A DNA stretch of 61,276 nucleotides, counting the filler. It is 14 parts of 14 records of this genome, joined end to end, with 100 filler letters (N's around TTAATTAATTAA, not from the genome) between each part and the next. Parts side by side here need not be neighbours in the genome. Positions count along the whole stretch, not along the records: positions 26,345 to 29,755 come from SRR7504441_111882; 13 more parts are not named here. One strand, 5' to 3'. Below, piece after piece: positions 5,926 to 61,276 of the stretch. The position numbers were made by a program, and so were the translations under genes. Position 1 is the first letter of the stretch. Each line of letters starts with the position of its first letter. Under the pieces are notes generated by a model that did no database searches, was not told where the DNA came from, and saw only the letters and a list, made by a program, of their open reading frames with translations.

Positions 5926-6358
5926 CACTCCGAGTAGTTCGAACACACGTGCGTAACAGCAATTAATTAAGAAGAGCCAACTAGATAAATTCACTTACAC
6001 GTTCACTTATATAGCTAACAGCCATACCTAACTGCTCAAGGCCAGTCTTGTCACACGGCGTGATGTCGAGGGTCACNNNNNNNNNNNNNNNNNNNNNNNN
6101 NNNNNNNNNNNNNNNNNNNNTTAATTAATTAANNNNNNNNNNNNNNNNNNNNNNNNNNNNNNNNNNNNNNNNNNNNGAGTGGATGAATACCACGCGTGTC
6201 TACGAAGATGCTTGAGAACGGATGGTTCCACGACAACGTGAAAACCCCTCATGACGTCGTGTTGTGAGGAAAACCCCAAAATCGGCCAAAATCTTGAGAT
6301 TAAATTCGGATGTACATACTAGTATAGAAATCACCACGATTGTGCCTAGGTTGCTTCA

Positions 6359-8345
6359 TTAAATGTCAAAGTTTTGCCGTGGAGGATATTCGTCGTCCTC
6401 CGTAAAGTCAAACTGAGAACCATAAAGCTGCATTCCCATGCAACCATACACAACCAAAACTACAATCATGAACATCAAAATGTTGATGATAGGCTGCATC
6501 GAATTGAAAGCAGCATCGATGATCTTGCGCACAGACTCTATCTTTCGCAGGACTCTTGTCAACCTAAGGGCACGGAATATGCGGAAAACTCGGATAAAGC
6601 CAACATCGATGCCGGCAGATTCTGTGATCATGTTCAGCCAAGAAGTGACCACAATGAAAAAGTCAAACTTGTTGGAGCCAAATCTCCAGTAGTTACAAAA
6701 ACCTTTCAAACAATAGAACTTCATTAGCATTTCGATGGTGAAAACAACATTGAAGGACCATTCAGCAACGTACAGCATGGTGCCGAACGCTCGAGATCTC
6801 TTGTAATGGTCGATTGCAAGGAAAATCGAGTTGAGACAGATGATAGCAATGATAGTGAAGTCAAATCCTGTAGACAAGATGAACGCTTCAGACTCGTCGA
6901 TTGTCAAGGCAAAGAAGAGACTATGCTGCACACGGAGGGCCCTGAGCGCAGAAAAGTCCATACCAACCTGTGCAACGTCGAGCCAACCAGTCACGACCAC
7001 AAAGAAATCCAGAATATTGAACATATCATCAAAGTACGATCTAAACCCCAGAACAATCCACGAATTCAGCATGTCGATTGTGAAAAGAATATTTGCTGTC
7101 AGATCTAGAGCAGGTAGGACATCGTCCTGATAAGAATTGCCACAACTTCTGTCCTGATCACCTGTGCCATTACATGATGTGTCCTGTGAAATGAGACCCA
7201 GGACGTTGACAATATTCACTATCAGCATGAACCACTGCCATCCAGCATCAGCACGGAGCCTGGAGCAATATTGCCAGAGACAGGTCTCGTCGCTGATGCA
7301 CGACGCACCCCGTAGCCAGAGTACATTCTTCCCTACTAAGTTCCGCTCTTTTCGAGCCAACTTCTCGATCATCTTGGCGTTCTTTATCTCGAACACCAGG
7401 TGCTCCTCCTCGCTCTGGCACTTGCTAATGTCCTGATTCTCTCGAATACAGCGCCGCCACTCGGCAATGTTGTCAGCTCGCTTCAGTTCCCAGTCCCGAC
7501 GCCGCACCGCTGCCTTGAACTCCAATTTTGCTTTCTCGAGTATCAACTCGGTCTCGGCATCGTGCTTGTTTGGCCCGTCGCCAGGGTGTTCGCTCAGGTA
7601 GTCGACACCATAAATGTCCTCCCACCACTCGACGAATCCATCCAGTTCAGGGTCGTTGTATGGGTAGGTTTTCGCCTTTTCCTCGCGTTTGGCCTTAGTC
7701 TGTCGGATCGTTTGGTTCCTGTCGGGCTTGGTCCCATCGGCCAGCTCAAAGCAATAGATGCACACGATCAGATTAACGTACAGCGTTTTGTTCACCCCTG
7801 GCGGCGAGCCCTCGTCCAGCAGGGGCAGGCACAGCTCGATGAACTCGTCGATCTCCGCCGAGCCCACCTGGCAGCCCACCCATCACCCCTGTTAGCAGCC
7901 GGTGGTATTCCCCCCCTCGCGACGCCACCCCACAGTCGGGCCGCGGGCTCTAGCTAAACGACCGCCCCCTGAGGCTGCGACACCACCAGACTGACTCCCT
8001 GGGTCGATCGGGATTGGTCACAGCCCCCTTACCCTAACGCCGGCGCCGCACATTCAGATTGAAGGGCTCGGAGAAGGCGAGGTAGGCGACGTTGGTGGCC
8101 AGCAGGTTGAGCTCAGCCTCTGTGTCGATGAACCCGCTCTCGTCGATGTCATAACGGTCGAACTGGTCCTCCAGCGCCGCCACCGTGTCGGGCGACAGCT
8201 CCCAAAACAGCTCCTCCCGTGAGAACATCCCAGGCCCCGACTCGGCCGGCTCGTCGGGCCCTGTTGGCGGCGAGTCGGCGGGGTGCTCATCGGGGGGGTC
8301 CTGGTCGCTCTTCGGGTCGACTGGGTCGATCACCGTCCCGCTCAT
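6359..8345 (-). CDS. EF-hand plus voltage-gated Ca/Na channel-like protein, internally deleted and truncated (possible pseudogene or misassembly); intron 7868-8051
   Basis: EF loop DIDESGFID; repeat with FNILDFFVV and S4 SALRALRV; second repeat with NKFDFFIV, S4 RVFRIFRALRLTRVLR and S5 GMQLYG; ends at RQNFDI-stop. Confidence 0.75.
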
Positions 8346-9574: not shown

Positions 9575-10244
9575 NNNNNNNNNNNNNNNNNNNNNNNNNN
9601 NNNNNNNNNNNNNNNNNNTTAATTAATTAANNNNNNNNNNNNNNNNNNNNNNNNNNNNNNNNNNNNNNNNNNNNCCGCGGCCCAGACCGAGCAGGTTGAG
9701 GCGACGGATCTGCAAAACAGTGCACGTGTGGCGGAGTAACACAGCTCCGCGCTGTTGGCGCCGGCTCCCTGAAATACCTGGAGCGCCGCTTTACCCGCAG
9801 ATGGTCATGTACCGGCAATGAGCTCTATCCGCAGACCTGCCTCGGCGCCCGGGTCGGCGCCGAGCGCTGTATACACGTAGTGTGAAAGCCGGCTCGCCGG
9901 TTCAAGATAAGTGGCTTGCAAGCAACGCGCGAGCCTGGCCTGCTGGCAACACGGCGCCAGGCGATCGCGCAATGGCATACAACCCAACGCACAGTCGGGT
10001 GTCTTTTGATGAGTTTTTACTCGTGAGTACTGTATGTGCGCCATCTGTGCACGTCCGGCCGGACTTAAGTCTTTAGATCACGACATTACATGTAGCTAGT
10101 GTAATGTTAGTCATCAGTGCGCACTAACCTAGGGCGCCGGGCACATTACCGGGGTGTTTATGAGTACTCTGAGTAGCCGAACTGAAACTCTAGCCGGACA
10201 GTACACTGTAGCCGAATTTAACGGCTTCGACATTCAACCAAAAG

Positions 10245-13998: not shown

Positions 13999-14386
13999 TT
14001 CCGTTACGCACCTTGGACAAGTTGGAGTCCAGGTCCTCTTGTGACCTTGTCTCTGCTAGCTGCCGGATCGAACTGTGCACCCCGTCCCATCGAGCGGCCT
14101 CCGTGGGAGACGAGCACAGAGTGCCGCGTGTGCACCACGGCCAGCTGCTGTCGATCGCGATCTACTCCCCAGACCTCCACCNNNNNNNNNNNNNNNNNNN
14201 NNNNNNNNNNNNNNNNNNNNNNNNNTTAATTAATTAANNNNNNNNNNNNNNNNNNNNNNNNNNNNNNNNNNNNNNNNNNNNAAGTCATCTACGGTGGTAG
14301 CATCGCTCATCGGATTGCTTCTCGCCAACGCTGGAGCCGCCAGACGGCAGTCCGCAACGACGTTCCGTTACTGATCTCCCTCGACC

Positions 14387-17242
14387 ATGAGGTGGCAGTT
14401 GCTCAGCTTGCTGTGGGTGCCTGGGCTGCTGGCGGGCCCGGTGGTTGTGACGGACGTGTGGCCGCGGCTAATCTACACCAAACTACCCACCGAGCTCCAC
14501 ATCCGGGGCCGCGGTTTCTCCGGCGGCGCCGGCCCAGCCCTCTGCCGGATTCTCTCACTGGACAACGCCTTCGTCGGTCAAAACTATACGGACGACCCAT
14601 CGGCCCAGGGGTACAACATCATGCGCGCACTCCCGGCCAGGGTGATCAACGACTCCGCGTGCGTCTGCACCACTGTGCCGCTGCACAATGCGGCACCGGC
14701 CAGCTTCGCACTCTCCACGGACGGTGGGCAGCAGTTTGCCAACCTCAATCTGACGCTCCGCTTCGTAGAGATGGCCGAGTGGGCCGTGAGCCGCAGGCCG
14801 TTCGTGTGGGAGCGCGCCGGGGCGCTGCTGGTCAGGACAGACAGCTCGGTGGCGGGGGGCACTCTCAGCCTGACCGCCAGGCTACACCGGCACCTTCCTA
14901 ATCGGAGCGGGTTTGACGGGCCGGTCGACACCGCTGCCGTCCCGGGGGGCGACCTGCTCGGTGGTGCCAGGGTGATCCGGCCGGCCACGGGCCAGAACGA
15001 GCATCGGGTGCGATTCGATCTGAGGAGGCTGCCAGCAATGGTGGATGACGACCTCGTTGTGACGGTCGATTTCAAGCTGGCTGACGGGACTGTCGGCCAG
15101 TTCAGGAGCTTCAAGCGGTTCGTGCGCGTCCCGCCGCCCCCGGACAACCGAACGGTCTTCCAAGTAGATCACGAGACTCGGGGGATGCTCAAAAACGGGT
15201 GGGAGCCCTTTGTGGGACTTGGCTGGTTCAATTCGGCATTCGAATACGCGCACGAGAGCCTAGGCGATATGGGGCTCACCTCGCCGGCTGTCAATGGCTG
15301 GCTGGCCCGCGGGGGCTCGTTTGCCGTCGAGTGGGCAAAGCGGGGACAGACACTCCTTCGGATGGGGAATGCACATTTGATCGAAAGTCCGCAGCTGATG
15401 AACGACATCCTGGACGAATGCTTCGCTGCAGGCATTTATGTGATGCTCTCGCCGCCGTCCTATCAGTACGCCGTCTCTCCCAACGAGACGACCCGTGCCT
15501 GGCTTGCTGGCAACATCTCAGCGGTCGCCTCACACCCAGCGGTGTGGGGTTGGTATATTTGCGACGATTGCTGCAAGGGCTTCGACTTCCTCTGGCAGCA
15601 GTCGCTCGCCTACGACCTGATCAAGCAGCTCGACCCGTACCACCTCACCGCCGGGTTTCTCGAATGCGGCGAGATGGCAGCCTTCCAAGAGCCTCACCTT
15701 TCTCTCGATGTACCAATACGTGAGAACTACCGGCCGGACCTGAGTTTCCACCAAGCCGATGGATGGGACCAGCCCGGCTCGGATGGGGCTCTCCGGACGG
15801 CCCCAATGAGCTTCGAGCCGGTGATGAACGGCCCTCAGGTCGAGAGGCAGTGGAACCCTGAGGTAGCCCGCAGCAATGTCTACCTTGGACTGATAACAGC
15901 AAACATGCCAAACATACACTGGTATGTGTTCAACGGCATCAACTACCTGCGCTGGCAGAATCGAGACCTTGTGGACAAGACGTTTGCAGAGGTACGTGAG
16001 CTGCTCCCTTCGTTCTACGCCCCATTCGATACAAAGCACCCTCAAGTGATCGTCGACCGAAGCTCTCCAACTGTAAGAGCTCGAGCCTGGCGTGAGCCGA
16101 GTAATGACGCGGCGGTTTGCGTCCACATTATTGCTGTGAATAGTGTGGCTGAAAATGCGATGCCGCAGCCAACCGTATTCAAGGGCAGGATAAGTGGGCT
16201 CACTGCCGCTGAGCTGAAATGGCTTAGTCTGCAAGGTGCAGCTACGTTTGTCAACCTTGGCATTCAAACCAACACCAACGTGAGCGGTGCAGTCAATGGG
16301 ATGGCAGCCAGGGCGATCGACGATTGTGTTGTGAATTGCGCCGACACCAAGAAGCAGGCCTACTTGTGCCGCCAGGTGCCCCTGATTGGGCTCCAAGACG
16401 GCACCGTGCAACTCTCCGATTGGATTGGCCCTGCAGCAACCGCGCGTTACCGAATCGGCTGCTCTCCAGACGCTGCTAATGCTGGTCTGCCACCAGAGCC
16501 GAACAATCTGGTGTTCGACCCGTCACTAGAGCGCACAATGCAACCGGGAGTGCCGGGTTACAATATCCAAAACAATCACCAGAGCTTCTGGATTGTAGCC
16601 CTTCCACCGGATGGCAACAGAATTGGGCGTGGGGCGTATGATGACCGTACCCACCTGTTCATCGACTCGATGCTGCCACATGGTGGGAGGCATTCGGCAC
16701 GGGTGTGGCTGCCTCAAGCCTTCCCGTACTCGGCCTATGTTCCGTTGCCATGTGCCGACAAGAACGCTTCTGTTTGTGGAACGACTGTGCAAGTGAAAAC
16801 TGGAGAATCGATGGATTTCTCTTTCTGGGGTCGTGCAGACCCCTTGAGTCGGGCCGTCATTGAGCTAGTCATCGGCGGTTGGCAAACTATGCCAAGCGGT
16901 AACGACTACCGATTTGTGGTGAATCAGACAATTGCAACCAGCATGTCACTCAATAGCACTTGGCAGCAGGTGGCAGGGAGTGTCTCGAATGCAAAGTTCA
17001 CCGGGATGGTGTACATGCGAATCTTTTCCATCGCACGGCCTGGAGCGATCTGGTTTGATGATGTCAAAGCAACGCAGCTGCCTTCACCGCCCCAGTCTGG
17101 CACCTGCATGGTCACAGAAGGTGGCTGCGATAATCCAGGAAACACATACAACTGCGAAGGACAACTGTGTACCGGCTGTACTTGCACTGGCGGATGCCTC
17201 GGAGGCATCTTTTCCGGCTGCAAGTGCAGCTCTTGCTGGTGA
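14387..17242 (+). CDS. secreted multidomain protein: IPT/TIG-like, glycoside-hydrolase-like barrel, CBM-like domain, Cys-rich tail
   Basis: Signal peptide, LHIRGRGF, LSTDGGQQF, HPAVWGWYICDDCC, YDLIKQLDPYH, IWFDDV; 951 aa, intronless. Confidence 0.65.
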   Translation: MRWQLLSLLWVPGLLAGPVVVTDVWPRLIYTKLPTELHIRGRGFSGGAGPALCRILSLDNAFVGQNYTDDPSAQGYNIMRALPARVINDSACVCTTVPLHNAAPASFALSTDGGQQFANLNLTLRFVEMAEWAVSRRPFVWERAGALLVRTDSSVAGGTLSLTARLHRHLPNRSGFDGPVDTAAVPGGDLLGGARVIRPATGQNEHRVRFDLRRLPAMVDDDLVVTVDFKLADGTVGQFRSFKRFVRVPPPPDNRTVFQVDHETRGMLKNGWEPFVGLGWFNSAFEYAHESLGDMGLTSPAVNGWLARGGSFAVEWAKRGQTLLRMGNAHLIESPQLMNDILDECFAAGIYVMLSPPSYQYAVSPNETTRAWLAGNISAVASHPAVWGWYICDDCCKGFDFLWQQSLAYDLIKQLDPYHLTAGFLECGEMAAFQEPHLSLDVPIRENYRPDLSFHQADGWDQPGSDGALRTAPMSFEPVMNGPQVERQWNPEVARSNVYLGLITANMPNIHWYVFNGINYLRWQNRDLVDKTFAEVRELLPSFYAPFDTKHPQVIVDRSSPTVRARAWREPSNDAAVCVHIIAVNSVAENAMPQPTVFKGRISGLTAAELKWLSLQGAATFVNLGIQTNTNVSGAVNGMAARAIDDCVVNCADTKKQAYLCRQVPLIGLQDGTVQLSDWIGPAATARYRIGCSPDAANAGLPPEPNNLVFDPSLERTMQPGVPGYNIQNNHQSFWIVALPPDGNRIGRGAYDDRTHLFIDSMLPHGGRHSARVWLPQAFPYSAYVPLPCADKNASVCGTTVQVKTGESMDFSFWGRADPLSRAVIELVIGGWQTMPSGNDYRFVVNQTIATSMSLNSTWQQVAGSVSNAKFTGMVYMRIFSIARPGAIWFDDVKATQLPSPPQSGTCMVTEGGCDNPGNTYNCEGQLCTGCTCTGGCLGGIFSGCKCSSCW

Positions 17243-17610
17243 AGAAATAGATAAGAAATAGAAGAAATGTGAAGAAATGGCAGACGCGAAAGACTCTGAA
17301 TGTACATGGCTCAAGACGTACTCAAGACGGACACGAAGAAGCACCAGCATGATTCATGCATGATTTATTAGCTATCACCGAGTGGAACCTTAGGCAATAT
17401 TAATATTCGTGTTTGGCTCTAGTTTGCTGATAGAAGTCATTTTGATGGTTGTAGCTTTTCCTATGCTCAGCTCGCTCTTCGCGCCCATAACAAACTCCCC
17501 TTCCGATTCCNNNNNNNNNNNNNNNNNNNNNNNNNNNNNNNNNNNNNNNNNNNNTTAATTAATTAANNNNNNNNNNNNNNNNNNNNNNNNNNNNNNNNNN
17601 NNNNNNNNNN

Positions 17611-18821
17611 CCAGCGCTCGTGGTTGAAGTTGTACATGATCAGTCGGAAGCCGTCGCCCTCCTTGCCCAGCAGGTTGGTCACCGGCACCTTGACGTCCTC
17701 GTACAACACGAGTGCCGTCCCGGCTGACACACTGTACGTGGTCTTGATCTGGGTGGTCTCGAGCCCCTCGCTCCGCTCGACAAGAATCAGAGAGATCCCG
17801 CCGTGCCCCTTGCCGCCGGTGCGCACGGCCGTGATGAACACGTCCGAGGTCATGCCCTCTGTGATCCACTTCTTTATGCCATTGAGCACGTAGTGCTTGC
17901 CGTCAGGAGTCTTCTCACCAGTCAGCCGGACCGAGGCCACGTCCGACCCGGCGAACGGCTCAGAGATGGCCAGGCAGCTGGTCACATCCCCGAGCATCAG
18001 CGAGCTGCCAGCAGGCTGAGCCGCAGTCGACCGGGCGCTCACCGGCCGATCCCTGCCTTGAGTGGAGCGCTGCCGAAGTTCATCACACACGGGAACGAGA
18101 TGAGGTATCCGCCGCCGCAGCCGTCCAGGAACCCGGGGGTGCCCACCCTGGCCATCTCCTGGTGCACGATCATCTCGTGAAAGTAATCAAAAGTCTCAGG
18201 CGAGCAGCCCTCTGGCAGCGAGATGCCCAGCCGTACAGCCTCCTTGAGCCACGGGCTGCGCCAGACTCAGCCCCGGCCCGGCCCAACCGCTCACCCGGGC
18301 CCGATCCGGGTGACCAGAAGCCCGTTCATCGCCAGCTTCTTCTTGAGAGCCTTGCTCGGGTACTTCCCTGCCCCCGGCTGCTGCACCAGCCTAGCCCGGC
18401 GGCCCACACCGGCCAGGTCGTCCTTGACGGCGGTCGGGGCGAACTCGGTGGCCACGAACTTGCGTACGGCCCGCTGCATCGTCCGGTGGCCCTCGCTGTA
18501 GTAGGGCGAGTTGCCGCCCTGGAAGGCCGGAGGGTCGGCGAACGGGACAGGCGAGATGGCGTCCGGGGCGGCGAGCTGGTCGGTGGCGCCCTCGAGACGG
18601 CCCACCTTGAGCTTCTGGTACTTGGTGAGCACGTCCTTGCGGTGGAGCTCGAAGAACTCGGACGAGACGTCCATCCCGGCGTACTGCTCGAGCAGCTTGG
18701 CACCGCCCGGGTGGCCCAGGGCGAATGTGCTGACGTTGTACACGTCCCCGGCCACCGCCAGCCACAGGTCGCCCTGCTTGTTGTGCTTGGCCAGCTCGGC
18801 CTCGCTGATCATCTTCGCCAT
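17611..18821 (-). CDS. cytochrome b5-acyl-CoA dehydrogenase fusion, 3'-partial, three short GT-AG introns
   Basis: b5 motifs ELAKHN...DLW...VYNVSTFALGHPGG; ACAD motifs CLAISEPFAGSDVA, LNGIKKWIT, MYNFNHERW. Confidence 0.92.
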
Positions 18822-18908
18822 AATGTCGGAGTGCAGCGGGCCGGGGGGCGACTTGCGGCCCGAAAACAACGGACATCAACGGACATCAGTGAGCATCAGG
18901 AGGAGGCA

Positions 18909-22119: not shown

Positions 22120-22614
22120 GTGCCAACGGAAACGGAAGATCTCCGGCAAGGGGGAGTGCAGGTTGGGAGCAGTACTGGGAGACTTGTAAAACTCCCGCAC
22201 NNNNNNNNNNNNNNNNNNNNNNNNNNNNNNNNNNNNNNNNNNNNTTAATTAATTAANNNNNNNNNNNNNNNNNNNNNNNNNNNNNNNNNNNNNNNNNNNN
22301 TAGCCAAATGAACCGGTTTGTAAGTTCAAGAGCATCTTTGACGTGCCAAGTGGGTTGAACGGGGTTTCGGTACACGCTACAGTAACTAGCAAGGTGGTAG
22401 GCAGGCTTATTCCCTAATTAGCAAGATGGTGTTCCCTTATAAGGAAGGTGGTAGGTTGTTGTAACAACTCGATGGGCCGACAGTTCCAACTGTTGAATTC
22501 ATCACATTCTCTATTATAGTAGTAGACCTACATGTAGTACAGAATTAATCAATATTTTCATCACTCATGCATCACTTTCGAGCTCGGTTACTAACGAACA
22601 ATTGTCTTATCATG

Positions 22615-25023: not shown

Positions 25024-26095
25024 TTAGAACATGGGCTGCTGGGGAGCAGCGTGGCCGCCGTATGCGCCCCACTCCTGGCCAGCTGCCGGCGCGGCCGGAG
25101 CGGCTGGAGCAGCCGGAGCAGCCGAAGCGCCCCACTCCTGGGCAGCAGCGAAGCCGCCAGGGGTGTCGCCAGCGCCAGGGGTGACGCCGAACGCGGACGG
25201 GTCGGCCTGCGGCACGACAGCCGGAGCGGCATCGTACTGCGGGGTGGCGGCCGGGATGACAGCCTCCTCAGCCGCCTGCTGAGCCTCCTCGATCTGCCTC
25301 TCGGCCTCCTCGGGGTCACGGTGGAAGAACAAGTCAACCACAACGTCCCACGGCTGCTGGCGGGAGATGGAGCCGCGCATCCGGAGCACCTCACGGGCCA
25401 GCATCCAGTAAAGCAGACCGATCGAGTTCCGGGCCTTGTTGTTGGCCGGAATGGCGATGTCCACAAACCGGAGCGGAGAGTCGGTATCACAGAAGGCAAT
25501 GGTCGGGATATTCATGTACGAGGACTCCCGAATCGGCTGGTGGTCGGTCCGCGGGTCGGTGAGCACGAGCAGACGGGGCTCCATGTACTTCTTCTGGATA
25601 TAGTTAGTGAAGGTACCTGGAGTGTACCGGCCGGCAATGTATTGGGCGCCAGTGTACTGAGCGTACTTGAGCACAGCACGGCCGCCGAAGGGGCGGGCGG
25701 CGATGACGCACACGTCACCCGGGTTCTCGATGGCCACGATCACGCGAGCGGCGAGCATCATCTTCTCCCAGGTCTTGGAAAGATCGAAGATGTACACACC
25801 TGCAAAAGAGCGGCTTAGCCCAGCGGGCGGGTGAGGGTGGCCGGGCGGGCGGGCTAGACAAGGTCAGAGCCTGTATCTACCCATCCACTTGCGTGTCGTC
25901 TAATACATGCAATTATCGAATTCACATCACGCCCGAGGGAGCAGCGGGGGGAGGCCGGGGAGGGGTACCGTCCATCTGGCGGCGCTTGTATGTGTACTTC
26001 TCCATCTGGAAGTCGCAGTTCTTGGTGCCCAGGTGCACTTGGCACGCGAGCATCCGCTGGATGTCATCTTCAGTGTACGGCAGATCAGTGGCCAT
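25024..26095 (-). CDS. RPSA: 40S ribosomal protein SA (uS2), intron 25800-25968
   Basis: Exon 1 [31 protein letters not shown]; exon 2 [18 protein letters not shown]...[10 protein letters not shown]...EPRLL...[10 protein letters not shown]. Confidence 0.98.
25859..25935 (-). ncRNA. intronic box C/D snoRNA, SNORD45-like (guide for the 18S Um172-equivalent)
   Basis: Box C GTGATGT (25930-25924), box D CTGA (25867-25864), guide TGCATGTATTAG (25911-25900) complementary to conserved 18S CUAAUACAUGC, followed by a degenerate D' box ACGA. Confidence 0.82.
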
Positions 26096-26720
26096 GTTGG
26101 ATCAGGGCTCTTGGCGCGGACGAAGCCCACGGGCGAGAATAAAGAAAAATAAATAAAAAAGACCGCAGCAAAACACTCAGCCGGCTCAGCGATGCGGCTG
26201 TACAGTAATCGGGCTGTAATCCTCCGAAAGTTAGATAGACCGAANNNNNNNNNNNNNNNNNNNNNNNNNNNNNNNNNNNNNNNNNNNNTTAATTAATTAA
26301 NNNNNNNNNNNNNNNNNNNNNNNNNNNNNNNNNNNNNNNNNNNNGACTGCTTCCAAACCTGATCCAAATGCGCGAATGGCACGATGGCAAGGCACGAAGG
26401 CAGTAGTTTATTGAGACGAACCGATTTATGTTGTTAAGATTACTTTGTGATCCATCTCGCGCCTAGCTTTCTCATCACTTTCTCATAATTTCCTTGACTT
26501 TGCCGTCATCATGGGTTATGAAATCGTGAAATTGATTCGAGAGCTTGAGCCTGCGTAGCATAGCCTCACGACCCAAACACGCCTGTTAAAAGCATCAGAG
26601 AGGACGCCACCACGATGCATGATAGTCCGATCCGAATCCAGCATGCGCCTCGAGCATCGTCCTTGCCACGCCTTAGCCAAGCCTACAGGTGGGAACATGC
26701 AGTCTTGGCTGTCTCTGCGC

Positions 26721-28830
26721 TTATTCAGCGCTCTTCTTCACGGGCGACTGCACACAATAAAAATCAGTACTATCCTCAACTGTGTAAGGACACCTTGCGG
26801 GGGCGCGCACGCTGTGGTTGAGGCTTGCTGTCCTGAGACGCATCCTCTGGCTTGCTCGACTCTTTGTTGCCACCCTTGCCTCGACCGCGGCCTCCCCGGC
26901 CACGCCCACCTCCCCTGCCTCTATTCGGGCTCTTGACTTCTACCGTTGCGCCGTCCGATTGCTCATCGGCACCTTTTCCCTTGCTTGGCTTGGGCTTGGG
27001 TTTGGGCTGCTCAGACTTGCTGTTATTTTCTGTCTTGTTGCTCGGTTTCGGAAGAGGCACGTCAGCCGCGTGGCCATTCACCTCGGCGTCTGGCTTGGGA
27101 GCTGGCTTCGGAAGTCCAGGGAAGTCATCATCCTCGCTCTTAAAAGGCCTCCTTTCCCTCTTAGAAGGCGAATTGTCCCCACCTTTGCCCCTACCTCTGC
27201 CCTTGCCGCCTTTCCCCTTGCCGAACTGGCCCCCCTTGCCACCATAATGGCCGTCCTCGTCGCGGATGTCGCGGTAACAGTCGTCAATCTTCTGGCGAGC
27301 GCCATCAAACTCCTCGAGGTACTTGGTGTGCGTCTCCAGCCACAACTTGCCTTTCATCACAGCTGCCCGAGTGCCCACAAACTCCACCGTGTTGTCGAGC
27401 ACTCTGATGGTGATCACCCCAGTTTCTTGTTGCATCTGAAGCGGCCACACCGGCGGTCAGAACCAGCTCCTCCAGTCAGCGGCCCACCTCCCTGATGTTA
27501 GCGCCTTTCTTCCCGATAATCCAACCGAGTCTTTCCGCAGGCACCTGGGCCAATTCCAGCACGAGTGTGCACTGTTAGATACCTCGACGTGCTCCCTCAC
27601 CACGTCCAGCCGGGCCCTGCACTCGTCGACCGACTTCTGGTCCGGCCCGTGGATCACCACCTGACCGACTGCTCAGCTGTGCCCTTACGCACGCGCTACC
27701 CGGCCGTCCTCTATGTAGACGGAGTGCACACCAGAGTCACGCTCAGCTTTCTTAATGTGACTGCCCGCCAATCAAGCACGATGGCGCACGCGGCGGGCCG
27801 CACCTCCCCTTGGGCCCCACAATGGCGCCGATCAGGTCGGCGTCGACAGCAAAGCTGTGGTGCACGCTGCGGCCACAGATCAGCAGCCGGATTTGCTAGG
27901 CTGCAACCTGTTGCCGTACTGCTCCTGCCTGGCCTCCTTCTCCAGCTTCAGTTTCTGGGCTTCCTTCTCGAGTGATTTGAGCCCGTCCTGCCTCCGGCTC
28001 ACTGTCGACTCCCGAGGCCAGGCGCACCTGGTGCTTGGCGTGCAGTTGAAGCAGCATCTTTGCTGTATCTGCAGCAGTGGCCGTGCCCAGCAAGGAAAGC
28101 GTGGCCTGAAACCGCCCGTTCGAGCCGCGGGGGGTACTGAACTGCACCTTGGACCTCGGCTCCTGGAGAGCCAGACCCCACGCGCCGCACGTCTTCCTGA
28201 TGGTTTCAAGGTTTTCAGGATCCTCGATCCAGTTCATCATGTTGGCCGGGACAGCGACGTTGTGCTTCTCGAGGTTGAGCTTCTGCTGGGGCAACCCAGC
28301 GTACGGCCGAAGGCACGACAGCTCGACGATCTCATTGTAGCTTTTATCCCAACCCTGCCCGCGCTTGTTCGGCCGGCCATTGACCGGGCTCACCGTGTAG
28401 GCCAAATGGCAGAACTCGCCCTTGACCGCCGAGATGTCGGCCTCCCACCAGCACATACCGCCCTCGTGGTCGCCGCCCGGATGCTCGTCCGACTGACAGC
28501 ACACCTCCACCTTCTCCCTGGCCCGCCTGTAACCAAACCGCCCGGGCGGAGGGGGCTGGTTACTTGTCCTGATAGGTGTGGCCCTGGAGCGGCTCGGGCG
28601 GAAGTCGAACGTTTTGGAGCTCGACGGTGCGCCGCTCCCTCGAGACGACGAACTCGCATTCGCACGCATCGCCCTTAATGTCCAGCACCTTGGCCGGGAT
28701 AAACACCCGCTTCTGCAGGGCAAGCGAGCACAAGTCAGGAGAGCGCGCCAGCTCAAGGCTCCGCCGGGCCAAGCCTCCCGGGGTGCGGGGGATGGGGCAC
28801 CTCGGGAACGTAAACCTCCACCAGTCCCAT
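26721..28830 (-). CDS. FMR1: Fragile X protein family homolog (Agenet1-Agenet2-KH0-KH1-KH2-RGG), about eight introns
   Basis: MGLVEVYVPEKRVFIPAKV...VRLPP; CWWEADISAVKGEF...YNEIVELSCLRP; KH loops IVGPKG and IIGKKG; FVGTRAAV...LETHTKYLEE; RGRGGGRGRGG. These match the FMRP blocks in order. Confidence 0.88.
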
Positions 28831-29248: not shown

Positions 29249-29695
29249 TTAGCATTCGGCCGGGGCCGGAACGACGACGTTCACCTCCTCCCACTCATCC
29301 TCGGCATCTGGCCCAGCCCCCCGTCAACCGCGGCTCCAGGTCCGGCCAGACCCGGCTTCTTGAACACCATGTGGATCTCGGCCCCATTGTCCGCCTTGCC
29401 GTCGGCCAGGGTCTTGCCCTCCTCTAGCGCCTCGGACGTCTCGGCCAGGAGCAGCTTAATATCCTCCGGCTGCCCGACCGATCAGTGGTGACCTCGCTAG
29501 CACGGCGCGCAAACCCACCGCAGGGGTGTTGCCCAGGATCTGCGAGAGTTTGGCCTTGGCGCGGTCGACTGTATCGGACGGTTCACAGACCAGGAAGATG
29601 GTCTGGGCCGGGCATGGGTGAGCCGGGGCGGCCGGCCAACAGGGCTCAGTCACCTGCTTATCCCGCTTGACCCTGAGGTAGTTCCACTGGCTCAT
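29249..29695 (-). CDS. ELOB: Elongin B-like ubiquitin-fold protein, three introns
   Basis: Spliced MSQWNYLRVKRDKQTIFLVCEPSDTV...LEEGKTLAD...EWEEVNV resembles Elongin B. Confidence 0.75.
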
Positions 29696-29855
29696 CCTCC
29701 GTAGCACGCCTCCCTGCGGTAATCCAAAAATGCCCAGCTGCGGAGAGGCCGTTGTNNNNNNNNNNNNNNNNNNNNNNNNNNNNNNNNNNNNNNNNNNNNT
29801 TAATTAATTAANNNNNNNNNNNNNNNNNNNNNNNNNNNNNNNNNNNNNNNNNNNN

Positions 29856-33352: not shown

Positions 33353-34183
33353 TTATTGTAAAAAATCCTGCAACGATTCGGCCAGTGAGCGCCGCAGTGT
33401 TCTAGATTTTTCCTCGTCATCCAAAGATCGCAAAGTCTCTGACATGAGCGCGTCCTCGTCGCTTCGCAGTCCCCAGGAGGCATACCGAAGCGCGTCGTGG
33501 CAATGCCGCACAGCTGCCAACACTACTTCCCGATCGTCCTTGAGCCTGTCTGATGCATATTGGAGCGCTCTGCCGTCATTGTGCACTGCTACAAGCACCA
33601 CTTGCTTGTCGTCCTGAAGCTCGGGCGAGGCATGCAACAGCGCCCTTCCGTTCTTCCGGACTGCCTCCATCACGACATCTTTCTCGCCTCGCAATATCAG
33701 GTCTGCGAACAGCAAGGCGCAGCTGGCTTGTTTCACTGCAGCAAAGACCACATCCTTGTCGGCACGCAGCTCATCTGATGCGTGTACCAGAGCGCCTCCA
33801 CCCTGGTGCATCGCCTCAAGCACCACGGTCTTGTCATTCCTGAGTTCGGAAGAGGCAAATTCGAGGGCAGAACCCGCTTGCCTGACGGCAGCAAGCACCA
33901 CCTGCCTGTGTGCTCTAAGCTCCAATGACGCCTCCTGCAGCAGCCGACCATTTCGCTGGACCGCCTCGAGAGCAACTCTGAGCTCCTCCTCGGCTGCAAC
34001 CCAGTTGCTCTTCCAGCTACTAATAGGGCTCGCTGCCTTGCTAACTAGATCTTCCTGCGAATCTCGCACATCGAATAGCGCAGCTTCCATTTGTCTAGCC
34101 TTTGAGCGAGCCATTGCTGGTTCTCTGTGCATGTGCACCTCAAACTCAGTTCGATCGATAAACCCGTCCTTGTTGGTATCTAT
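33353..34183 (-). CDS. DUF4116-repeat protein with N-terminal EF-hand, 5'-partial
   Basis: About seven 25-aa repeats of the type L-x-x-D-K-x-VV-x-x-AV-x-x-x-G-x-AL-x-x-AS; EF loop DTNKDGFIDRTEF at the contig edge. Confidence 0.85.
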   Translation of the reverse strand: MDTNKDGFIDRTEFEVHMHREPAMARSKARQMEAALFDVRDSQEDLVSKAASPISSWKSNWVAAEEELRVALEAVQRNGRLLQEASLELRAHRQVVLAAVRQAGSALEFASSELRNDKTVVLEAMHQGGGALVHASDELRADKDVVFAAVKQASCALLFADLILRGEKDVVMEAVRKNGRALLHASPELQDDKQVVLVAVHNDGRALQYASDRLKDDREVVLAAVRHCHDALRYASWGLRSDEDALMSETLRSLDDEEKSRTLRRSLAESLQDFLQ

Positions 34184-34283
34184 NNNNNNNNNNNNNNNNN
34201 NNNNNNNNNNNNNNNNNNNNNNNNNNNTTAATTAATTAANNNNNNNNNNNNNNNNNNNNNNNNNNNNNNNNNNNNNNNNNNNN

Positions 34284-40994: not shown

Positions 40995-41423
40995 ACGAGC
41001 CGCGGGCCCAGGCCCTCGAGCGAGCAAAGGCGCGTGCATTCGACAGATTCATCGATGCATACGCCATACGGCAGATTAGAACTACTAACAATGTTTAATA
41101 TACATAGCATTACTTGTAAATAACTTGTAAAGAAAAAGTCTTAGTAAAAGTCTTCTTGAACGTCAAACTCAAAATTCAGCCTCATTTATTACTTGGTAAC
41201 GCACACGTTNNNNNNNNNNNNNNNNNNNNNNNNNNNNNNNNNNNNNNNNNNNNTTAATTAATTAANNNNNNNNNNNNNNNNNNNNNNNNNNNNNNNNNNN
41301 NNNNNNNNNCCCGGCTCACCGATACAAGGCTACCTAAACCGATCTTCCAAAAATCGTAATAATAAGACCCCGGTAAACTAATAGGTACCGGGTGGTACAC
41401 GTGACTGGTGGAGCTGGTGAGCC

Positions 41424-44324: not shown

Positions 44325-44662
44325 CACCAAGATTCCAGGAATTAGTTACAAATGGATCGTGAAAGTAATGCGTCGTGAAAGTAATGCGTCATTCGCATGC
44401 TGTACGCATCCAATGCATGGGAAATTGTTGCATCAAAGTTACTTTGCGGCCGAATTGTTTGATCCGAAGAAGATGACAGTATTTATTACGACTTCAGTAT
44501 AACTTATTACAGTGATCATGATCAAGAATAGAAGAATAAAACCATCTTATTAAAGTATAGCANNNNNNNNNNNNNNNNNNNNNNNNNNNNNNNNNNNNNN
44601 NNNNNNTTAATTAATTAANNNNNNNNNNNNNNNNNNNNNNNNNNNNNNNNNNNNNNNNNNNN

Positions 44663-49104: not shown

Positions 49105-49605
49105 NNNNNNNNNNNNNNNNNNNNNNNNNNNNNNNNNNNNNNNNNNNNTTAATTAATTAANNNNNNNNNNNNNNNNNNNNNNNNNNNNNNNNNNNNNNNN
49201 NNNNTGGCATTTAAATCGGTTTCTTGTCTGGTAAGCCTGCTGCCTGGCCCGCTTGAGAGCGCAAGCAGTTAGCTCCAGCCCTAGACGAAGTGCATGCGGA
49301 AGCTTAGATCCAATTGTTAAGTATGAATTCGAAGACTAGTGTGATCGCTTTATACAGCGGTACATGTACGTACCGTTACAATCTCGATTAAATCGATTAG
49401 TACTTATCCTGAGACTAATCAGTTAGATATCTCCTCAGGCGGGAGCTACTCGTACAGTGTACTACGCCCGAATGTAGGGCTCCCGAATGTGCATTGATAT
49501 TTCTGGGCTGTCGACTGATTTCACTTCACAGACGTCTCTCCGACACGTCGACAAAGCTCAACATAGCTCAACATGATGAAGCCTGGCTCGTGGCTGGGAG
49601 GCCCT

Positions 49606-52187: not shown

Positions 52188-52513
52188 CAAGATAAATTAT
52201 TAGGGGCCCTTATCTACGCCATAATTATGGGCTTTTAATTAACTAANNNNNNNNNNNNNNNNNNNNNNNNNNNNNNNNNNNNNNNNNNNNTTAATTAATT
52301 AANNNNNNNNNNNNNNNNNNNNNNNNNNNNNNNNNNNNNNNNNNNNGTCTTCCCAGGGCAGGGAGGGGTCAGCGGCCGTGCAGTTCCCGCGGCACGGGAG
52401 CCCCGCCGGCGGCGAGCCGGGGCGCTCCATCCCAACGTCGGCCCTCACGCCATCTGCACAACGACAACCCAACAACAACAACACAACGGTCATCTCCGGA
52501 CGTGGTGGTGGCC

Positions 52514-55447: not shown

Positions 55448-55547
55448 NNNNNNNNNNNNNNNNNNNNNNNNNNNNNNNNNNNNNNNNNNNNTTAATTAAT
55501 TAANNNNNNNNNNNNNNNNNNNNNNNNNNNNNNNNNNNNNNNNNNNN

Positions 55548-58500
55548 CCTTGCTTCAGTGTGAGCACAGTGTGCTCATCATCTCTTGTTGCGCTAGATGC
55601 AGCTACACAGAACCTGCAGTTGGGCCGGTGCACTGCGGGGCTGGTGGCTGGAGTGAATATGATCTTCGATCCAGTTGGGTTCCTTTGTCTCGGGTCTGCT
55701 TTGGCTCCAGATGGCAAGTGCAAGACCTTTGATACAGCTGCAAATGGAATGGGCCGTGGCGATGCAACTGGTGCAGCGCTATTGCGTCCCTTGGAACTCG
55801 AAGGAGATACTCAAGTTGTGATCCGGGCTTCCGGCGTTAACCAGGATGGCAGAAGTGCGTCCATGGCTGCAGCAAACGGGCCATCGCAGGTGGAGCTGCT
55901 CTGTGATGTCATACAGCGAGCCACCGTAGTGGCAGATTGGCGCTGCTCCAGCGAGACTCACGGCACTGGAACTACGCTGGGCGATCCGATCGAAGTCGGT
56001 GCTCTGCGTGCAGTGTTTGGGCATGGGACCAGTTGCAGTGCGCCAATGGTGCTGGGAGCGCTGAAGTCGCGGCTGGGGCACACCGAGGGCGCTTCAGGAA
56101 TAATGGGCGTTCTCAAGGCGGCGCTTCTGCTCTATCAAGCCGCCCGTCCTACCAACTTACACCTGCAAGTGTCCAACCCGAAACTGGAACTGGACGGGTT
56201 TGGTGCTGTGCTGCCAGTGGTAGCTGTTGCTGCGCGTGTCAAGCGGACAAGTGCAGATGCAGCCTGGACCAGTGGGGTGAGCTCGTTTGGCATGTCGGGT
56301 ACCAACAGCCATGCTGTGCTGGACAATACGATGTTGACCGTGAAATTGTCGCAACACCTCGAGAAATCATCAATGGTGCAATACAACACCAGATCTTTTG
56401 CCTGGGTTGTACTACTGTCAGACGAGGCTGGCGATGTGATGCGAAACCCACCAAAATTTGTTGATGAGCATCTGTACGAGGTGGCATGGAAGCCCTCACG
56501 AGCAAACTCAGAACAACAGCTTCTTGTTGAGTATTTGGGAAGCTACAAAACAATGATGACCGCATCTGACCTTTCTCAGTTCACTGTGTGCGTCATCGGC
56601 GCGGGAGCCACCGGGATTGGCATTGCTGGGATGCTCTCCAGACACCAGATTTCATCTGTCATGGTAGACAGGCGGCCCTGTATTGGAGGTCTGTGGCACG
56701 ACGGGTATGCTGGGCTTCGGTTGCATTGTCCAACTTACTACTACCAGTTTCTTGACGATCAGCTGGAAAACGAACCTCATCGAAACAAACTGCTCGCGCA
56801 CCGGCGTACGGCACAGGAGCAGCTTGAATATTTCGAGGACTATGCTAAGCGCCGCAGGCTAGCTTTTGTTCATAGTGTACATTGTGAGTTGCCTTCTGTT
56901 GTTCATAGGACAACTGCCTCTCCAACAGTCGTAATGTCTATCAACGCAGAATCTGTCCAGCTAGAAGTCAGCTTCAAGTGGGCTATTGATGCTCGCTTAG
57001 CTCGTCTTAACGCTGGTTCTCTGCGTCAATTAGCAGGAGCTGAACAGCTCACAACAGAACATATTCTTGGACCAAGTAGTTCCAGTTACATTGTCGTGGG
57101 CGGTGGCAAGTCTGGAGCAGACGCAGTCGTGGAGCTCTCAAGGGCTGGTAAAAAGAATGTTGTATGGATTTGCTCAAAGAAGCTCGGTTTCTCTCGAAGA
57201 GAGGACATGGCTGATCCGCAAAGCCGGGTGAGAGCACTAAAGCAATTCTACGAAGATTGGTTCAAAAGTGATGAAGAGGAGATTCTCGAGTTGTCCAACC
57301 TTGTCAGTCCTCATGACTCCTTTGATTGCTTCAAGTTCGGGATTATCGATCAAGAAGAATTAGACATTTTGACTCAAGTTCAAAAGGTGTATGGGCGGGT
57401 GACGAAGGTAACCACCTCTCTCAACCTCCAGTGCATAGTTGACCTGGAGGATGGCCGGTCCCTTGCAGCGGACAAGGTCATCAGCGCACTGGGTCCAGAT
57501 GCCCAAGCTGTAGTCACAGACCGATCGCATATCCGGACAAGCGCATCCCTGGTGCTCGACATGATCGACTTTGATAATCATGTACTTCATGCGAACAACG
57601 AGGTGGGCGAAGCTGCGCTGGGTGCGAGCCTTCTCGGTCTGCTAGCAGCAGGAGTCATCAGCAATACCATACCACGTTCGAAGTGTGAGAACATAAAACG
57701 TCTCAAGCGCTCGATCCCTCTTCTGGGATGTATAGCACCCTGGATGGCGCGGGACACAAACTCTGCACTGCAAGACAGCACTGTCTTCGAGGCATACATT
57801 GTCGAACTGTTAACCGGGGTCCGCACCGCATTCCGAGCGCTCGAATGGTCGACACAGCGGTCCTTGCTGCGGATGGATGACGAGTCTACGGTACCGGACT
57901 TTGCACTGCTAAGCCCTATCACACTCACACTATACCTGGGGTCGTTGAGATTGGACCCAGCTCTCCAGCAACACCGTGTTGTTTCGACAGTTCAAGAAAC
58001 GATCAATGTGATGGCAATGCCGGCAAAGGTGAGCACACTGCTTGTCGTATCAGCAGGGGCTCTCCAACCTGTCCAGGGTGTCTATGCTGGCTTGGTGCTG
58101 GTACAGATAGCCGATCTGGATAGGCAATCTCCGACAATCTGGTTCGTGACACACGGCACACAGGGTGAAACTATCCACTCTTCTGATGGATCTGGGCTCT
58201 GGGGGTTGGCCCGCACAGTACGTATCGAAAAAGGAAGCACTCTACCATGTGGATGTCTCGATCTCAAAGAGTCAACTGCGCTGATTGCCATCAATAGCTT
58301 GGATGTATTCGAGCCTGAGGTTTTACAGCAAGAAGGAAAGGACCATCATCCGGTATTGAAGCGGGCCCACTGCACCGCAATGCAGGTGCTGGCAGCCCCA
58401 CGCCGCGCCCATGTTATCACTGGAGGTACTGGTGCCTTAGGACTGGTGTCGGCTGCTTGGTTGTCGGCGGGAGATGCCATCCGGATCATCCTGTTATCCC

Positions 58501-61276
58501 GGACCGGATCGATTGATGCTGCTGAGAGGTGGGTGTCGTTGGCACAGTCCGGAGTGTCAGTGCTACTAGTGCAGGGAAGCATAACGGAACGGCTACAACT
58601 CGAAGCACTCAACAGTAACCTAGCCACACAGCAGCTAGGTCACCTTGTGCACTCCGCTGGGACACTGGCCGACGCTGTCTTCCGAAATCAGACGTTTGCG
58701 AAGCTGACGCGTGTCTGGAGGCCCAAGGTTCAGGGACTGGCAGCCTTGGATGCTTGCAAGTTCAGTGCAGACTTTACGCTGCTCTTTTCGTCAATGTCGG
58801 GCCTGCTTGGATGTTACGGGCAAACCAACTATTCCGCTGCAAACACCCATATGGATGCAGTTGCACGATTATGTCGAACCCAGGAGAAGCCCTGGACAAG
58901 CATTCAGTGGTCAGCATGGTCTGGCTCCGGGATGGCAGCACCGATCGCTAGTGAAGTGGAACAGACTGGCATACAGCTTATCGAGCCCTCCCAGGGGTGG
59001 TCAGCTCTTGACTGGTGCACCAAGTACAGACCTGCAGTGGTGGCAGTAATCCCAGTGTCCTGGCCGACCTTTGTCTTTGAAAAGTCAAACTTCGGTTCCG
59101 ACTTTTTTTCTGAAGTGGCATTGCCTGCAGTAGCTGCGCCACTTCATGGTTCTCATAGCTCGGGACTGTTGCCGTTCATGAATGAAACCCAGAAACGGAA
59201 CTTGTTAGAGAGCATTTTCGCGGAAGAATTGCAAAAACTGGCAACCAGCGATCTGGTGCTTTCCGCGGATGATGCACTCCCCGACGTGCTGGATTCCCTC
59301 CAAGCACTGGAGTTTCAGCATTGTTTGTCTCGGAGGCTACCTGGTGTCAGCATCCCAGCTAGCGCACTCTTTGAGCATCCCACGACCCGAAGTTTTGTGG
59401 CCTTCTTGAACAGCTCATATCAAGTACACTCGCCTTCCAGCAAAGATGTAGTTTCTGTTCTCGAGCCATGTGCAACCGCAGTTGTGCTATGCGGAAAGAG
59501 CTGTCGGCTGGCCCAAAGAATGCAAAGTGGGCAGCAGTTCTTCAGATTCCTTGTGGAAGCCGCCTGCTGTATCACACAAGCTTCGCGCACACGATGGGCA
59601 GTGATGAGTGCACATTTTGAGGATCTTGAGCCTGATTTCGGCATTGGATCGTTCCTTGAGGATCTAGAGCTATTCGATGCAACTTACTTCGGACTGAAGC
59701 CACGGTTAGCAAAGAGTCTCGATCCGCATATCCGTGTGCTCCTTGAGTTGGTGGCAGAAGCATTATTGGATTCTGATTTGCTAGCTCTCCACCACACACG
59801 GCATAATCCAGTAGGTCTATTTGCTGGCACTCAACAGCGAGACTTTGCCTTGCCGTGTGGGAACAATGATGTTCCACGAGTAATTGCCCATGCTCTGAAT
59901 TTGCAGGGTCCACTTGAGCAGATTGAGCTCGAGTGCACATCGTCCCATGTTGCCGCTGCCCGCTCACTCACTTCTTTGAGGGAGAAACACTGTGCATCTG
60001 CCGTGGTTGCTGGGCTCTGTCTCCGGCTCACAGCGCCATTCGAGCGGTTTGTCATGTCAGATACTTTTCGAAGTACAACTGGTATTTGTAGGCCGTTAGA
60101 TGAGGCGTGCGACGGTGGTGTGAGAAGCGAGGGAGGAGGCGCATTGGTTCTGCAGCTGTGCACTCACGAGAAACCGAGAATGTCTGTAACACTTCAGAGT
60201 GCAAAAATCACTCGTAGCAGTATTCAGTTGGCCTCGCTGGCATCACCTGACCCTGAAGCACAGTCTGTTGCAATGAGGCAAGCTCTGGCAGGGGTTGGAG
60301 AATCGCCTGTCGCTGTGGCCATCTGTCATGTCCATGGGGTGGGACAAAAGATTGCAGACACATGTGAGATCTACGCATTAGCGAATGTGTATGGACAATC
60401 TCAGTCCGCACCACAGGTAACACTGATGAATCACAAGGCAAACTACGGACACACAACAGAAGGGTCGGGTGCACTCGCACTGATTTTGACCGCCCTATCG
60501 CTATACGAGTCGGTGCCGGCACACATGTACGTGGTACGGCCACTTGGAGCTATCGATCCATTTTTACTTGTACCGTGCTCACTCACAAGAACAGACGGCA
60601 GATCGTCAGTAGCTTCTGTGAACGGACAGGCCACGTCTGGTGTCAATGCACACTTGGTACTGTCCAAGCGCGCAGATGAATTACCGGATTTCTTGACATG
60701 CAGCAAGATAGAATACGAGCAGGCATCCTATCCCTGGTGCGATTTGCCTATGCGTGGGGTACGCCCTCAGCTTCCTTCAGACCCCGGTAGCCTGACAATT
60801 TCGAGCTCCCAACAAGATGAGGCTGATTCGGATAAGATCCGCTTTCGTTACTGGAACTGCCGGGGCACCGGGCAGGTGTGCCGGTACATGCTGCATGACA
60901 GCGGCACCGATGGACAGGATTTTGACGACGAGGTGGTCAGATTTACACAGGCCAGAGCCTGGGCTCTTGATAAGTTGGAAGAGTCCAAGACTGGCCCATT
61001 CCACTCTCTCCCAATGGTGGAGCATAGGGGAGAGTGCCTGAGTGAATCATCGGCCTGTACGCTCTACGTGGCCGAGCAGTTCGGATATTTGCCAGTCGAT
61101 CCGATGGAAAGGGCGAAGGCGTCGATGATCTGGCAGCATGTGAAAGAAGAAATAATTCATCGCATCGGCAGCGGTATGTATGAGCGCGAAGAGTGGCAAA
61201 CCATCATCGGCGGTGGAAAGTACCAGAGCTGGAGTACTTTTGTATCAAAGTACCAGAACCTGGAGGACGTGCTGAG
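55548..61276 (+). CDS. AT-less modular type I polyketide synthase fragment: KS - KR with inserted flavin monooxygenase - ACP - KS - GST; open at both ends
   Basis: Hand translation from 55548 gives 1909 codons with no stop. KS1: TVCSSS, HGTGT, GHTEG. FMO: GAGATG, GGLW, GGGKSG. KR: GGTGALG, HSAGTLAD, YSAAN. ACP: LDSL. KS2: ECTSS, HGVG, GHTT. GST: YWNCRG, PFHSLP, SES. Confidence 0.93.

Follow-up and report, generated by a model that had tools for sequence, protein, structure and literature searches.

A probable member of the FMRP/FXR family encoded by a non-animal, most likely unicellular marine eukaryote

The animal proteins FMRP, FXR1 and FXR2 (e.g., human FMR1 and Drosophila dFMR1) share one order of modules: two Agenet domains, a KH0 domain, a long helix, the domains KH1 and KH2, a second long helix and a disordered tail rich in RG/RGG. 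In animal FMRP, the KH domains bind single-stranded RNA, the RG tail binds structured RNA and acts in granules, and the N-terminal unit binds partner proteins. FMRP has been studied almost entirely as an animal, mostly neuronal, regulator of translation. Here, a gene with the same order of modules is described from a stretch of DNA of 61,276 bases (hereafter the window), for which an earlier note had proposed a complete Fragile X architecture in a unicellular eukaryote. The gene lies entirely inside one contig (26345-29755) and codes on the minus strand for a protein of 531 amino acids (aa). With a probability of roughly 0.88, this protein truly belongs to the FMRP/FXR family of RNA-binding proteins, and its host is a marine eukaryote other than an animal, most likely single-celled and probably a telonemid.

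The spliced protein was compared with a profile of 15 classical FMR1/FXR proteins, all of which contain the Pfam domains KH_9 and Tudor_FRX1 and 13 of which contain FXMRP1_C_core. The search with hmmsearch returned a single alignment of 146.5 bits between residues 5-445 of the protein and positions 7-447 of the profile, which spans both Agenet domains, KH0, KH1, KH2 and the helix behind KH2. By blastp, the protein matches a crab 'synaptic functional regulator FMR1-like' with an E-value of 1e-20 and 25% identity over 306 columns, and a profile of the window's clade in turn retrieves this crab protein at an E-value of 2e-22. Alignment of the clade with the 15 FMR1-type proteins by hhalign demonstrated the homology of the core: a single, collinear alignment of 350 columns (probability 100, E-value 6.5e-40) was obtained, in which residues 10-368 of the close relative P0001 are paired with template columns 18-388. 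Past KH2, only the adjoining helix aligns with the FMR1-type proteins (to template column 388).

P0001, which is 59% identical to the window's protein, was used for the sequence searches against the PDB and for structure modelling. The best eight of 15 PDB chains found with phmmer are FMR1, FXR1 or FXR2; the KH1-KH2 structure 2qnd was matched at an E-value of 3.2e-15 and the Agenet1-Agenet2-KH0 structures 4qvz, 4ova and 4qw2 at about 4e-11 over residues 12-195, which align to residues 14-192 of 4qvz. Other KH proteins begin at an E-value of 0.002 in this list. An unspliced 166-aa frame of the window reaches the N-terminal structures of FMRP at E-values of 0.025-0.033 (4qw2 at 0.025), level with a chance match to a glycopeptidase. 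Pfam recognizes KH_1 twice and Agenet in P0001. In the relatives, the two KH_1 stretches score between 1e-15 and 1e-20, and the second Agenet domain is found at 6e-8 to 1e-5, compared with 8.9e-5 (under the curated cut-off) in the window's exon frame. Agenet is the sole Pfam match in the single exon frames of the window, as the KH exons, taken frame by frame, do not have the length needed for a score. In the spliced protein, both GxxG loops are intact (GPKG at residues 243-246 in KH1, GKKG at residues 304-307 in KH2), and the motif AKMLLQLH falls on the KH0 helix when aligned to FMR1-type profiles. The tail (residues 355-531; G 18%, K 14%, P 11%, R 10%) contains two RGG and eight RG, and the second of its RG patches can be aligned weakly (domain 2) to the RG-rich stretch of the FMR1-type profile.

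An AlphaFold2 model of P0001, calculated with an alignment of 150 rows, shows an FMRP-like predicted fold. The predicted local distance difference test (pLDDT) value exceeds 90 for most of residues 1-370 and falls below 60 from about residue 370. The model consists of two beta-barrels, a beta-alpha-alpha-beta-beta-alpha unit (residues 129-221), a 40-residue helix, two KH folds, another 40-residue helix and a disordered region, in this order; the beta-barrel at residues 4-47 superposes on Tudor 1 of FMRP, and the helices comprise residues 179-221 (linker between KH0 and KH1) and 332-373 (behind KH2). Each of the 12 best PDB matches found with Foldseek is a structure of FMRP, FXR1 or FXR2. For the Tudor1-Tudor2-KH0 unit, superposition on the solved structures, among them 4ova and 4qvz of FMRP, gives template modelling (TM) scores of 0.72-0.77 (0.74-0.77 over about 205 columns for 4ova), both Agenet domains superpose on the Tudor pairs 3o8v, 3h8z and 3kuf with TM scores of 0.76-0.77, and the KH1-KH2 unit superposes on 2qnd with TM scores of 0.70-0.74.

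A similar order of domains could also have arisen by convergent domain shuffling, i.e., in an unrelated Agenet and KH protein and not by descent. Agenet and KH_1 are widespread modules and the sole two generic Pfam models that match the clade, and plant tandem-Agenet proteins are among the Foldseek matches (ranks 38-49). The folds of the single domains are indeed shared with plant AGDP1/ADCP1, PCBP, IGF2BP, Nova and FBP (Foldseek ranks 13-49, PDB phmmer ranks 11-14). However, none of the plant Agenet readers or KH tandems has its modules in the order of FMRP, and their E-values are at least 0.002 compared with 1e-15 for FMR1. The profile-profile alignment runs unbroken through the linkers, KH0 and the helix behind KH2, and the window's own protein likewise gives a single alignment to the FMR1-type profile. 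Moreover, Tudor1-Tudor2-KH0 and KH1-KH2 superpose on their FMRP counterparts as rigid units, whereas the KH tandems of PCBP2, IMP1-3, FBP and Nova reach TM scores of only 0.30-0.43 with root-mean-square deviations of 6-19 Å. Convergence is therefore highly improbable, and descent from a common ancestor with FMRP is preferred. Unrelated KH proteins are not the best matches in the PDB, Foldseek, profile or hhalign comparisons; FMR1/FXR proteins are. The parts listed in the earlier note were all recovered: two Agenet/Tudor domains that align to FMR1-type profiles and superpose on FMRP/FXR Tudor pairs in the P0001 model, KH0 with its AKMLLQLH helix and a KH-like unit in the model, KH1 and KH2 with their loops, the helix behind them, and two RG-rich patches, the second of which holds both RGG triplets. 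The core from Agenet 1 to the helix is collinear with animal FMRP as judged by both single alignments.

The window is composed of 14 separate contigs of 3.0-6.9 kb with a GC content of 53-64% (59% overall), which are joined by spacers of the form N44-TTAATTAATTAA-N44. Since the contigs were binned and joined in this way, genes on different sides of a spacer are not linked, and the contigs could stem from more than one organism. A first model of the FMRP-like gene, built from three minus-strand frames joined at GT..AG borders, had nine exons and 558 aa, and its eight introns are forced by changes of the frame. Two additional in-frame introns, 28355-28393 (39 nt) and 28106-28147 (42 nt), were called because all four close relatives compared (P0001-P0004) lack the corresponding 13 and 14 residues, because both are bounded by GT..AG and because their lengths are like those of the other introns. 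The "about eight introns" of the earlier note thus hold for those forced by the frame, while the total is ten. Its coordinates for the gene were right; the lower bound of 26721 extends 55 nt past the stop codon into the 3' untranslated region. The introns, all with GT..AG borders, are 37, 38, 39, 39, 40, 41, 42, 43, 52 and 88 nt long. P0001-P0004, found by protein search, are intron-free proteins of 525-546 aa on cDNA-sized contigs of 1.6-1.9 kb. The 531-aa protein is 56-63% identical to them in an end-to-end MAFFT alignment (48-59% to its nearest relatives by blastp), the sequence of the relatives is restored at every junction of the 11-exon model, and the first residues of exon 1 are shared with five close relatives (P0001-P0005). 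The gene is organized as follows:

26776..28830, minus strand: FMRP-like coding region, 11 exons and 10 GT-AG introns, 531 aa; ATG at 28830, TGA at 26776-26778
28801..28830, minus strand: exon 1, aa 1-10, start of Agenet 1
28713-28800, minus strand: intron 1, 88 nt
28564..28712, minus strand: exon 2, aa 11-60, Agenet/Tudor domain 1; aligns to the FMR1-type profile from position 7
28527-28563, minus strand: intron 2, 37 nt
28394..28526, minus strand: exon 3, aa 60-104, opening part of Agenet domain 2 (CWW...KGEF)
28355-28393, minus strand: intron 3, in-frame, 39 nt; without RNA cover in four runs
28148..28354, minus strand: exon 4, aa 105-173, remainder of Agenet 2, then the beginning of KH0
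28106-28147, minus strand: intron 4, in-frame, 42 nt; bridged by an RNA loose end of run X2
28028..28105, minus strand: exon 5, aa 174-199, C-terminal strand and helix of KH0 (AKMLLQLH)
27988-28027, minus strand: intron 5, 40 nt; skipped in runs X2 (joint) and X3 (loose end)
27908..27987, minus strand: exon 6, aa 200-226, long helix that links KH0 to KH1
27867-27907, minus strand: intron 6, 41 nt; skipped in X2 and X3
27804..27866, minus strand: exon 7, aa 226-247, first strand and helix of KH1; GxxG loop GPKG at 27806-27817
27761-27803, minus strand: intron 7, 43 nt; skipped in X3
27700..27760, minus strand: exon 8, aa 247-267, middle of KH1
27661-27699, minus strand: intron 8, 39 nt
27583..27660, minus strand: exon 9, aa 268-293, last part of KH1 and opening strand of KH2
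27545-27582, minus strand: intron 9, 38 nt
27488..27544, minus strand: exon 10, aa 294-312, KH2 with GxxG loop GKKG at 27503-27514
27436-27487, minus strand: intron 10, 52 nt
27244..27435, minus strand: exon 11, first part, remainder of KH2 to about aa 334 and long helix behind KH2 (about aa 335-376)
26779..27252, minus strand: disordered tail including the C-terminal end; RG patches by composition, disorder from the model of the relative
27178-27252, minus strand: RG/GK patch 1 of the tail, aa 374-398
aa 399-482: P/K-rich linker of the tail
26872-26925, minus strand: RG-rich patch 2 of the tail, aa 483-500, with both RGG triplets
6077-6176, 9575-9674, 14182-14281, 17511-17610, 22201-22300, 26245-26344, 29756-29855, 34184-34283, 41210-41309, 44563-44662, 49105-49204, 52247-52346 and 55448-55547: spacers between the contigs

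The FMRP-like gene is transcribed and spliced. Words of its contig are found in metagenomes and metatranscriptomes from marine and aquatic samples (shares of at most 0.25), and the contigs of four runs, one DNA run and the three RNA runs X2, X3 and X4, were aligned to the window. X2 and X3 both belong to study P2, and the three RNA runs together span the studies P2 and P3. RNA contigs are joined over three introns, namely 27761-27803 (X3), 27867-27907 (X2 and X3) and 27988-28027 (X2), and the skipped stretches read CT..AC on the plus strand, which corresponds to GT..AG on the strand of the gene. When the loose letters of the RNA contigs were located in the window, a loose end of X3 was found to continue exactly across 27988-28027, and a 13-letter loose end of X2 continues exactly across the in-frame intron 28106-28147. 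Taken together, the joints and loose ends show the removal of four of the ten introns, in each case in RNA of study P2. RNA contigs of X2, X3 and X4 (two studies) cover the 3' exon at 26741-27121, and pieces of the DNA run still contain introns 1 and 10, which is what genomic DNA should show. A same-strand gene upstream on the contig (29352-29701, minus strand) is also expressed: an RNA contig of X4 skips 29470-29518 (49 nt) and 29603-29653 (51 nt), both with GT..AG borders. The frame of this gene has no Pfam match at 1e-5.

To which extent the family is spread was examined with a profile of 16 relatives, which was searched over 1.84 billion representative proteins. The search yielded 6549 proteins at E-values of up to 1e-3, many of which are presumably KH proteins of a generic kind; 1982 remain at 1e-10 and 485 at 1e-30, and most of the best 150 representatives match nearly the whole profile. 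Among the best 147 representatives beyond those already in hand, Pfam recognizes KH_1 in 147, Agenet in 75, KH_9 in 61, Tudor_FRX1 in 57 and FXMRP1_C_core in 23; thus, about two fifths of the representatives are of the animal type, and the remainder is not seen by the animal-specific models (86 of the 147 lack the animal-specific KH0 signature). Full-length relatives were identified in the dinoflagellates Yihiella yeosuensis and Gymnodinium smaydae and the haptophyte Scyphosphaera apsteinii (all EukProt) as well as in the haptophyte Prymnesium parvum (NCBI KAL1527303.1, 'hypothetical protein'). These named homologs belong to the same family by profile, mostly match it over nearly its full length and are 29-33% identical to the window's protein, whereas its nearest relatives (48-59%, blastp) are unnamed metatranscriptome proteins. 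In the protein Atlas, the nearest cluster is automatically named 'Fmr1-b protein', with Perkinsozoa as its commonest phylum (score 0.91), and a KH cluster of Chlorophyta is found further down the list; both are regarded as leads only. Some protist homologs are therefore public already, as the earlier note had suspected, and since they are partly auto-named, the novelty lies in the recognition of these proteins and not in a new kind of protein. No paper on an FMRP-family protein outside animals was found in the literature searched, which does not cover subscription journals and supplements. The matching passages of PMC3361156 treat FMRP in animals only, and those of PMC9282427 and PMC4105795 contain nothing on the origin of FMRP.

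Several observations weigh against the assignment to the FMRP/FXR family. The protein shares only about 25% of its aligned residues with an animal FMR1, and it lacks the variable loop of animal KH2. KH_9 (KH0), Tudor_FRX1 and FXMRP1_C_core are unmatched in P0001-P0004 at E-values of up to 0.1, and the Pfam models of animal FMRP are unmatched in the window's exon frames at up to 1, so that only KH_1 and Agenet match in the clade. FXR_C1 and FXMR_C2 are also unmatched in the clade (E-values of up to 0.1). In addition, the PDB and structure tests concern P0001, and the window's own protein is tied to the family by profile search and blastp. Six of the ten introns, including the 39-nt in-frame intron, have no RNA cover in the four runs and thus rest on homology and splice signals. 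Finally, the literature searched contains no functional data on any non-animal member. What was found, on the other side, are the tandem Agenet domains, KH0, KH1-KH2 with GxxG loops, a disordered RG/RGG tail and FMR1/FXR proteins as the best matches; what is absent are FXMRP1_C_core and the variable loop of KH2, and these are absent likewise in 124 of the 147 family representatives. The C-terminal core and the KH2 loop therefore mark the animal subfamily and not the family. Unlike animal FMRP, the protein has a tail rich in G, K, P and R with two RG patches parted by a P/K-rich linker, and its gene contains ten tiny introns in a protist host. The low identity, the absent loop, the unmatched animal Pfam models and the different tail describe a divergent family member outside the animal subfamily.

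The host was assigned by RPSA, the only host marker used, which lies on the minus strand of the contig adjoining that of the FMRP-like gene in the window (long exon 25024-25863, further part at about 25922-26101) and has no physical link to it. Among the best 120 of 4815 RPSA matches, the only named organisms are Telonema subtile (82% identity over 87% of the query), Palpitomonas bilix and six cryptophyte entries (58-72%). The long exon is 85.9% identical to Telonema subtile over 213 columns versus 61-67% to cryptists. In a FastTree phylogeny of 113 rows (eight of the 120 matches were shorter than 230 aa and were dropped), the window's RPSA is found in a group of 15 rows with a support of 95, which contains Telonema and no cryptist. 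These sequence comparisons favour a telonemid or a close relative as the host, though by no wide measure of confidence. The unicellular eukaryote of the earlier note is accordingly most likely as far as the position of RPSA near Telonema subtile goes, with the reservation that this is one marker gene on another contig. The codon usage of the FMRP-like gene (GC content at third codon positions, GC3, of 0.74; r of 0.72 to the pooled other open reading frames) is inside the range of the window and does not discriminate. An animal host can be dismissed with near certainty, as judged from the tiny introns, the GC content, the place of the gene in its family tree and the further genes on the window, among them a type I polyketide synthase frame and DUF4116 repeats.

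The phylogeny of the family also bears on whether the gene could be an animal contaminant or a recent transfer from an animal. The window consists of short binned contigs, the host was assigned from a different contig, and animals are present in marine samples, all of which would allow for this explanation. However, the protein is only 25% identical to crab FMR1-like, while FMR1-type proteins are 41-51% identical among themselves. In an unrooted FastTree phylogeny of 151 rows, for which 11 rows of less than 380 aa were dropped and which provides local supports only, the 52 rows that are at least 33% identical to crab FMR1 form one side of a branch with a support of 99. The window's clade groups apart from them, with a second unnamed clade and a haptophyte-bearing clade (21 rows, support 97), and the dinoflagellate-bearing clade comprises 48 rows. 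Furthermore, the introns of 37-52 nt and the GC3 of 0.74 agree with what the remaining contigs show. An animal source is thus extremely improbable, and the marine meta-omic occurrence, introns of 37-88 nt in DNA of 59% GC, an RPSA near Telonema and a gene outside the FMR1-type clade leave the view of a non-animal host in place.

As the host is not an animal and full-length relatives exist in named dinoflagellates and haptophytes, the pre-metazoan origin of the whole architecture, which the earlier note had put forward, is supported and reaches beyond Holozoa. The tree pattern fits an old, largely vertical inheritance across distant eukaryotic groups; ancient transfers among these groups are the alternative, given an unrooted FastTree phylogeny with few named rows. 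There is about an even chance that the whole FMRP core (Agenet-Agenet-KH0-KH1-KH2-helix-RGG) was assembled in a very early eukaryote before the split of Amorphea from TSAR-Haptista, that it was vertically inherited by telonemids, dinoflagellates, perkinsids and haptophytes, and that it was lost elsewhere, e.g., in yeasts.

The remaining contigs contain several other genes. An uninterrupted 1909-aa frame at 55548-61274 (plus strand), which is open at both contig ends, comprises parts of a type I polyketide synthase (Pfam: C-terminal part of the ketosynthase (KS), ketoreductase (KR), PP-binding, N-terminal part of KS) and has a GC3 of 0.53, the lowest of the open reading frames compared. The minus-strand region 33356-34183 encodes five DUF4116 repeats (Pfam E-value 2.2e-65; a family of unassigned function) after an EF-hand-like start, and 6362-7882 (minus strand) encodes two Ion_trans repeats (Pfam E-value 4.8e-50) as part of a multi-repeat voltage-gated cation channel. 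On one contig, a frame with a cytochrome b5 domain (17611-18186, minus strand) and a frame with the middle domain of an acyl-CoA dehydrogenase (ACAD; 18294-18875, minus strand) were found, the first upstream of the second, which are possibly one b5-ACAD fusion gene. A 955-aa open frame at 14375-17239 (plus strand) has no Pfam match at 1e-5, and the Atlas clusters closest to it contain GH42-like hypothetical proteins of bacteria (Bacteroidota, Lentisphaerota; score 0.90), which is taken as no more than a lead. The frame may be a glycosidase-like gene acquired by transfer, or its contig may be bacterial and have entered the bin.

What the FMRP-like protein does can be proposed by analogy. Based on the homology to FMRP and on what is known about the animal protein, we infer RNA binding, partner binding and a role in translation. 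The two type-I KH domains would bind single-stranded mRNA via their GxxG loops, and the disordered RG/RGG-rich tail would bind structured RNA and promote the assembly of messenger ribonucleoprotein (mRNP) granules. The Agenet-Agenet-KH0 unit would dock protein partners, which are probably methylated, and the two long helices may serve self-association. The protein might thus ride on mRNPs or ribosomes and tune the translation or storage of the bound messages. A true homolog could also have shifted its role and might act as a reader of chromatin or methyl marks or as a factor of ribosome biogenesis instead of a cytoplasmic regulator of translation. The Agenet pair resembles that of the histone-mark readers AGDP1 and ADCP1 with H3K9me (Foldseek ranks 38-49), the matches to single KH folds include the pre-ribosome factor Dim2/Pno1 (ranks 14-15 and 30-47), and animal FMRP has nuclear roles, too. 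However, these fold matches are far weaker than those to FMRP, and the RG-rich tail and two canonical GxxG loops point to RNA. A shifted role is therefore considered unlikely, and a cytoplasmic function in mRNPs is the preferred proposal.

The gene is part of a large and essentially unremarked radiation of the FMRP/FXR family in protists, and the origin of the FMRP architecture is moved far below the base of the animals. According to this comparison, the two Agenet domains, KH0, KH1, KH2, the helices and the RG tail would be ancestral parts, whereas the KH2 loop and the C-terminal core would be animal additions. The protist members offer unicellular systems in which the function of FMRP before neurons can be addressed. 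If the core was indeed assembled in a very early eukaryote, the Fragile X protein would be an ancient, general regulator of mRNPs that became specialised for its neuronal role only late, and its core mechanism could be studied in simple protists as models.

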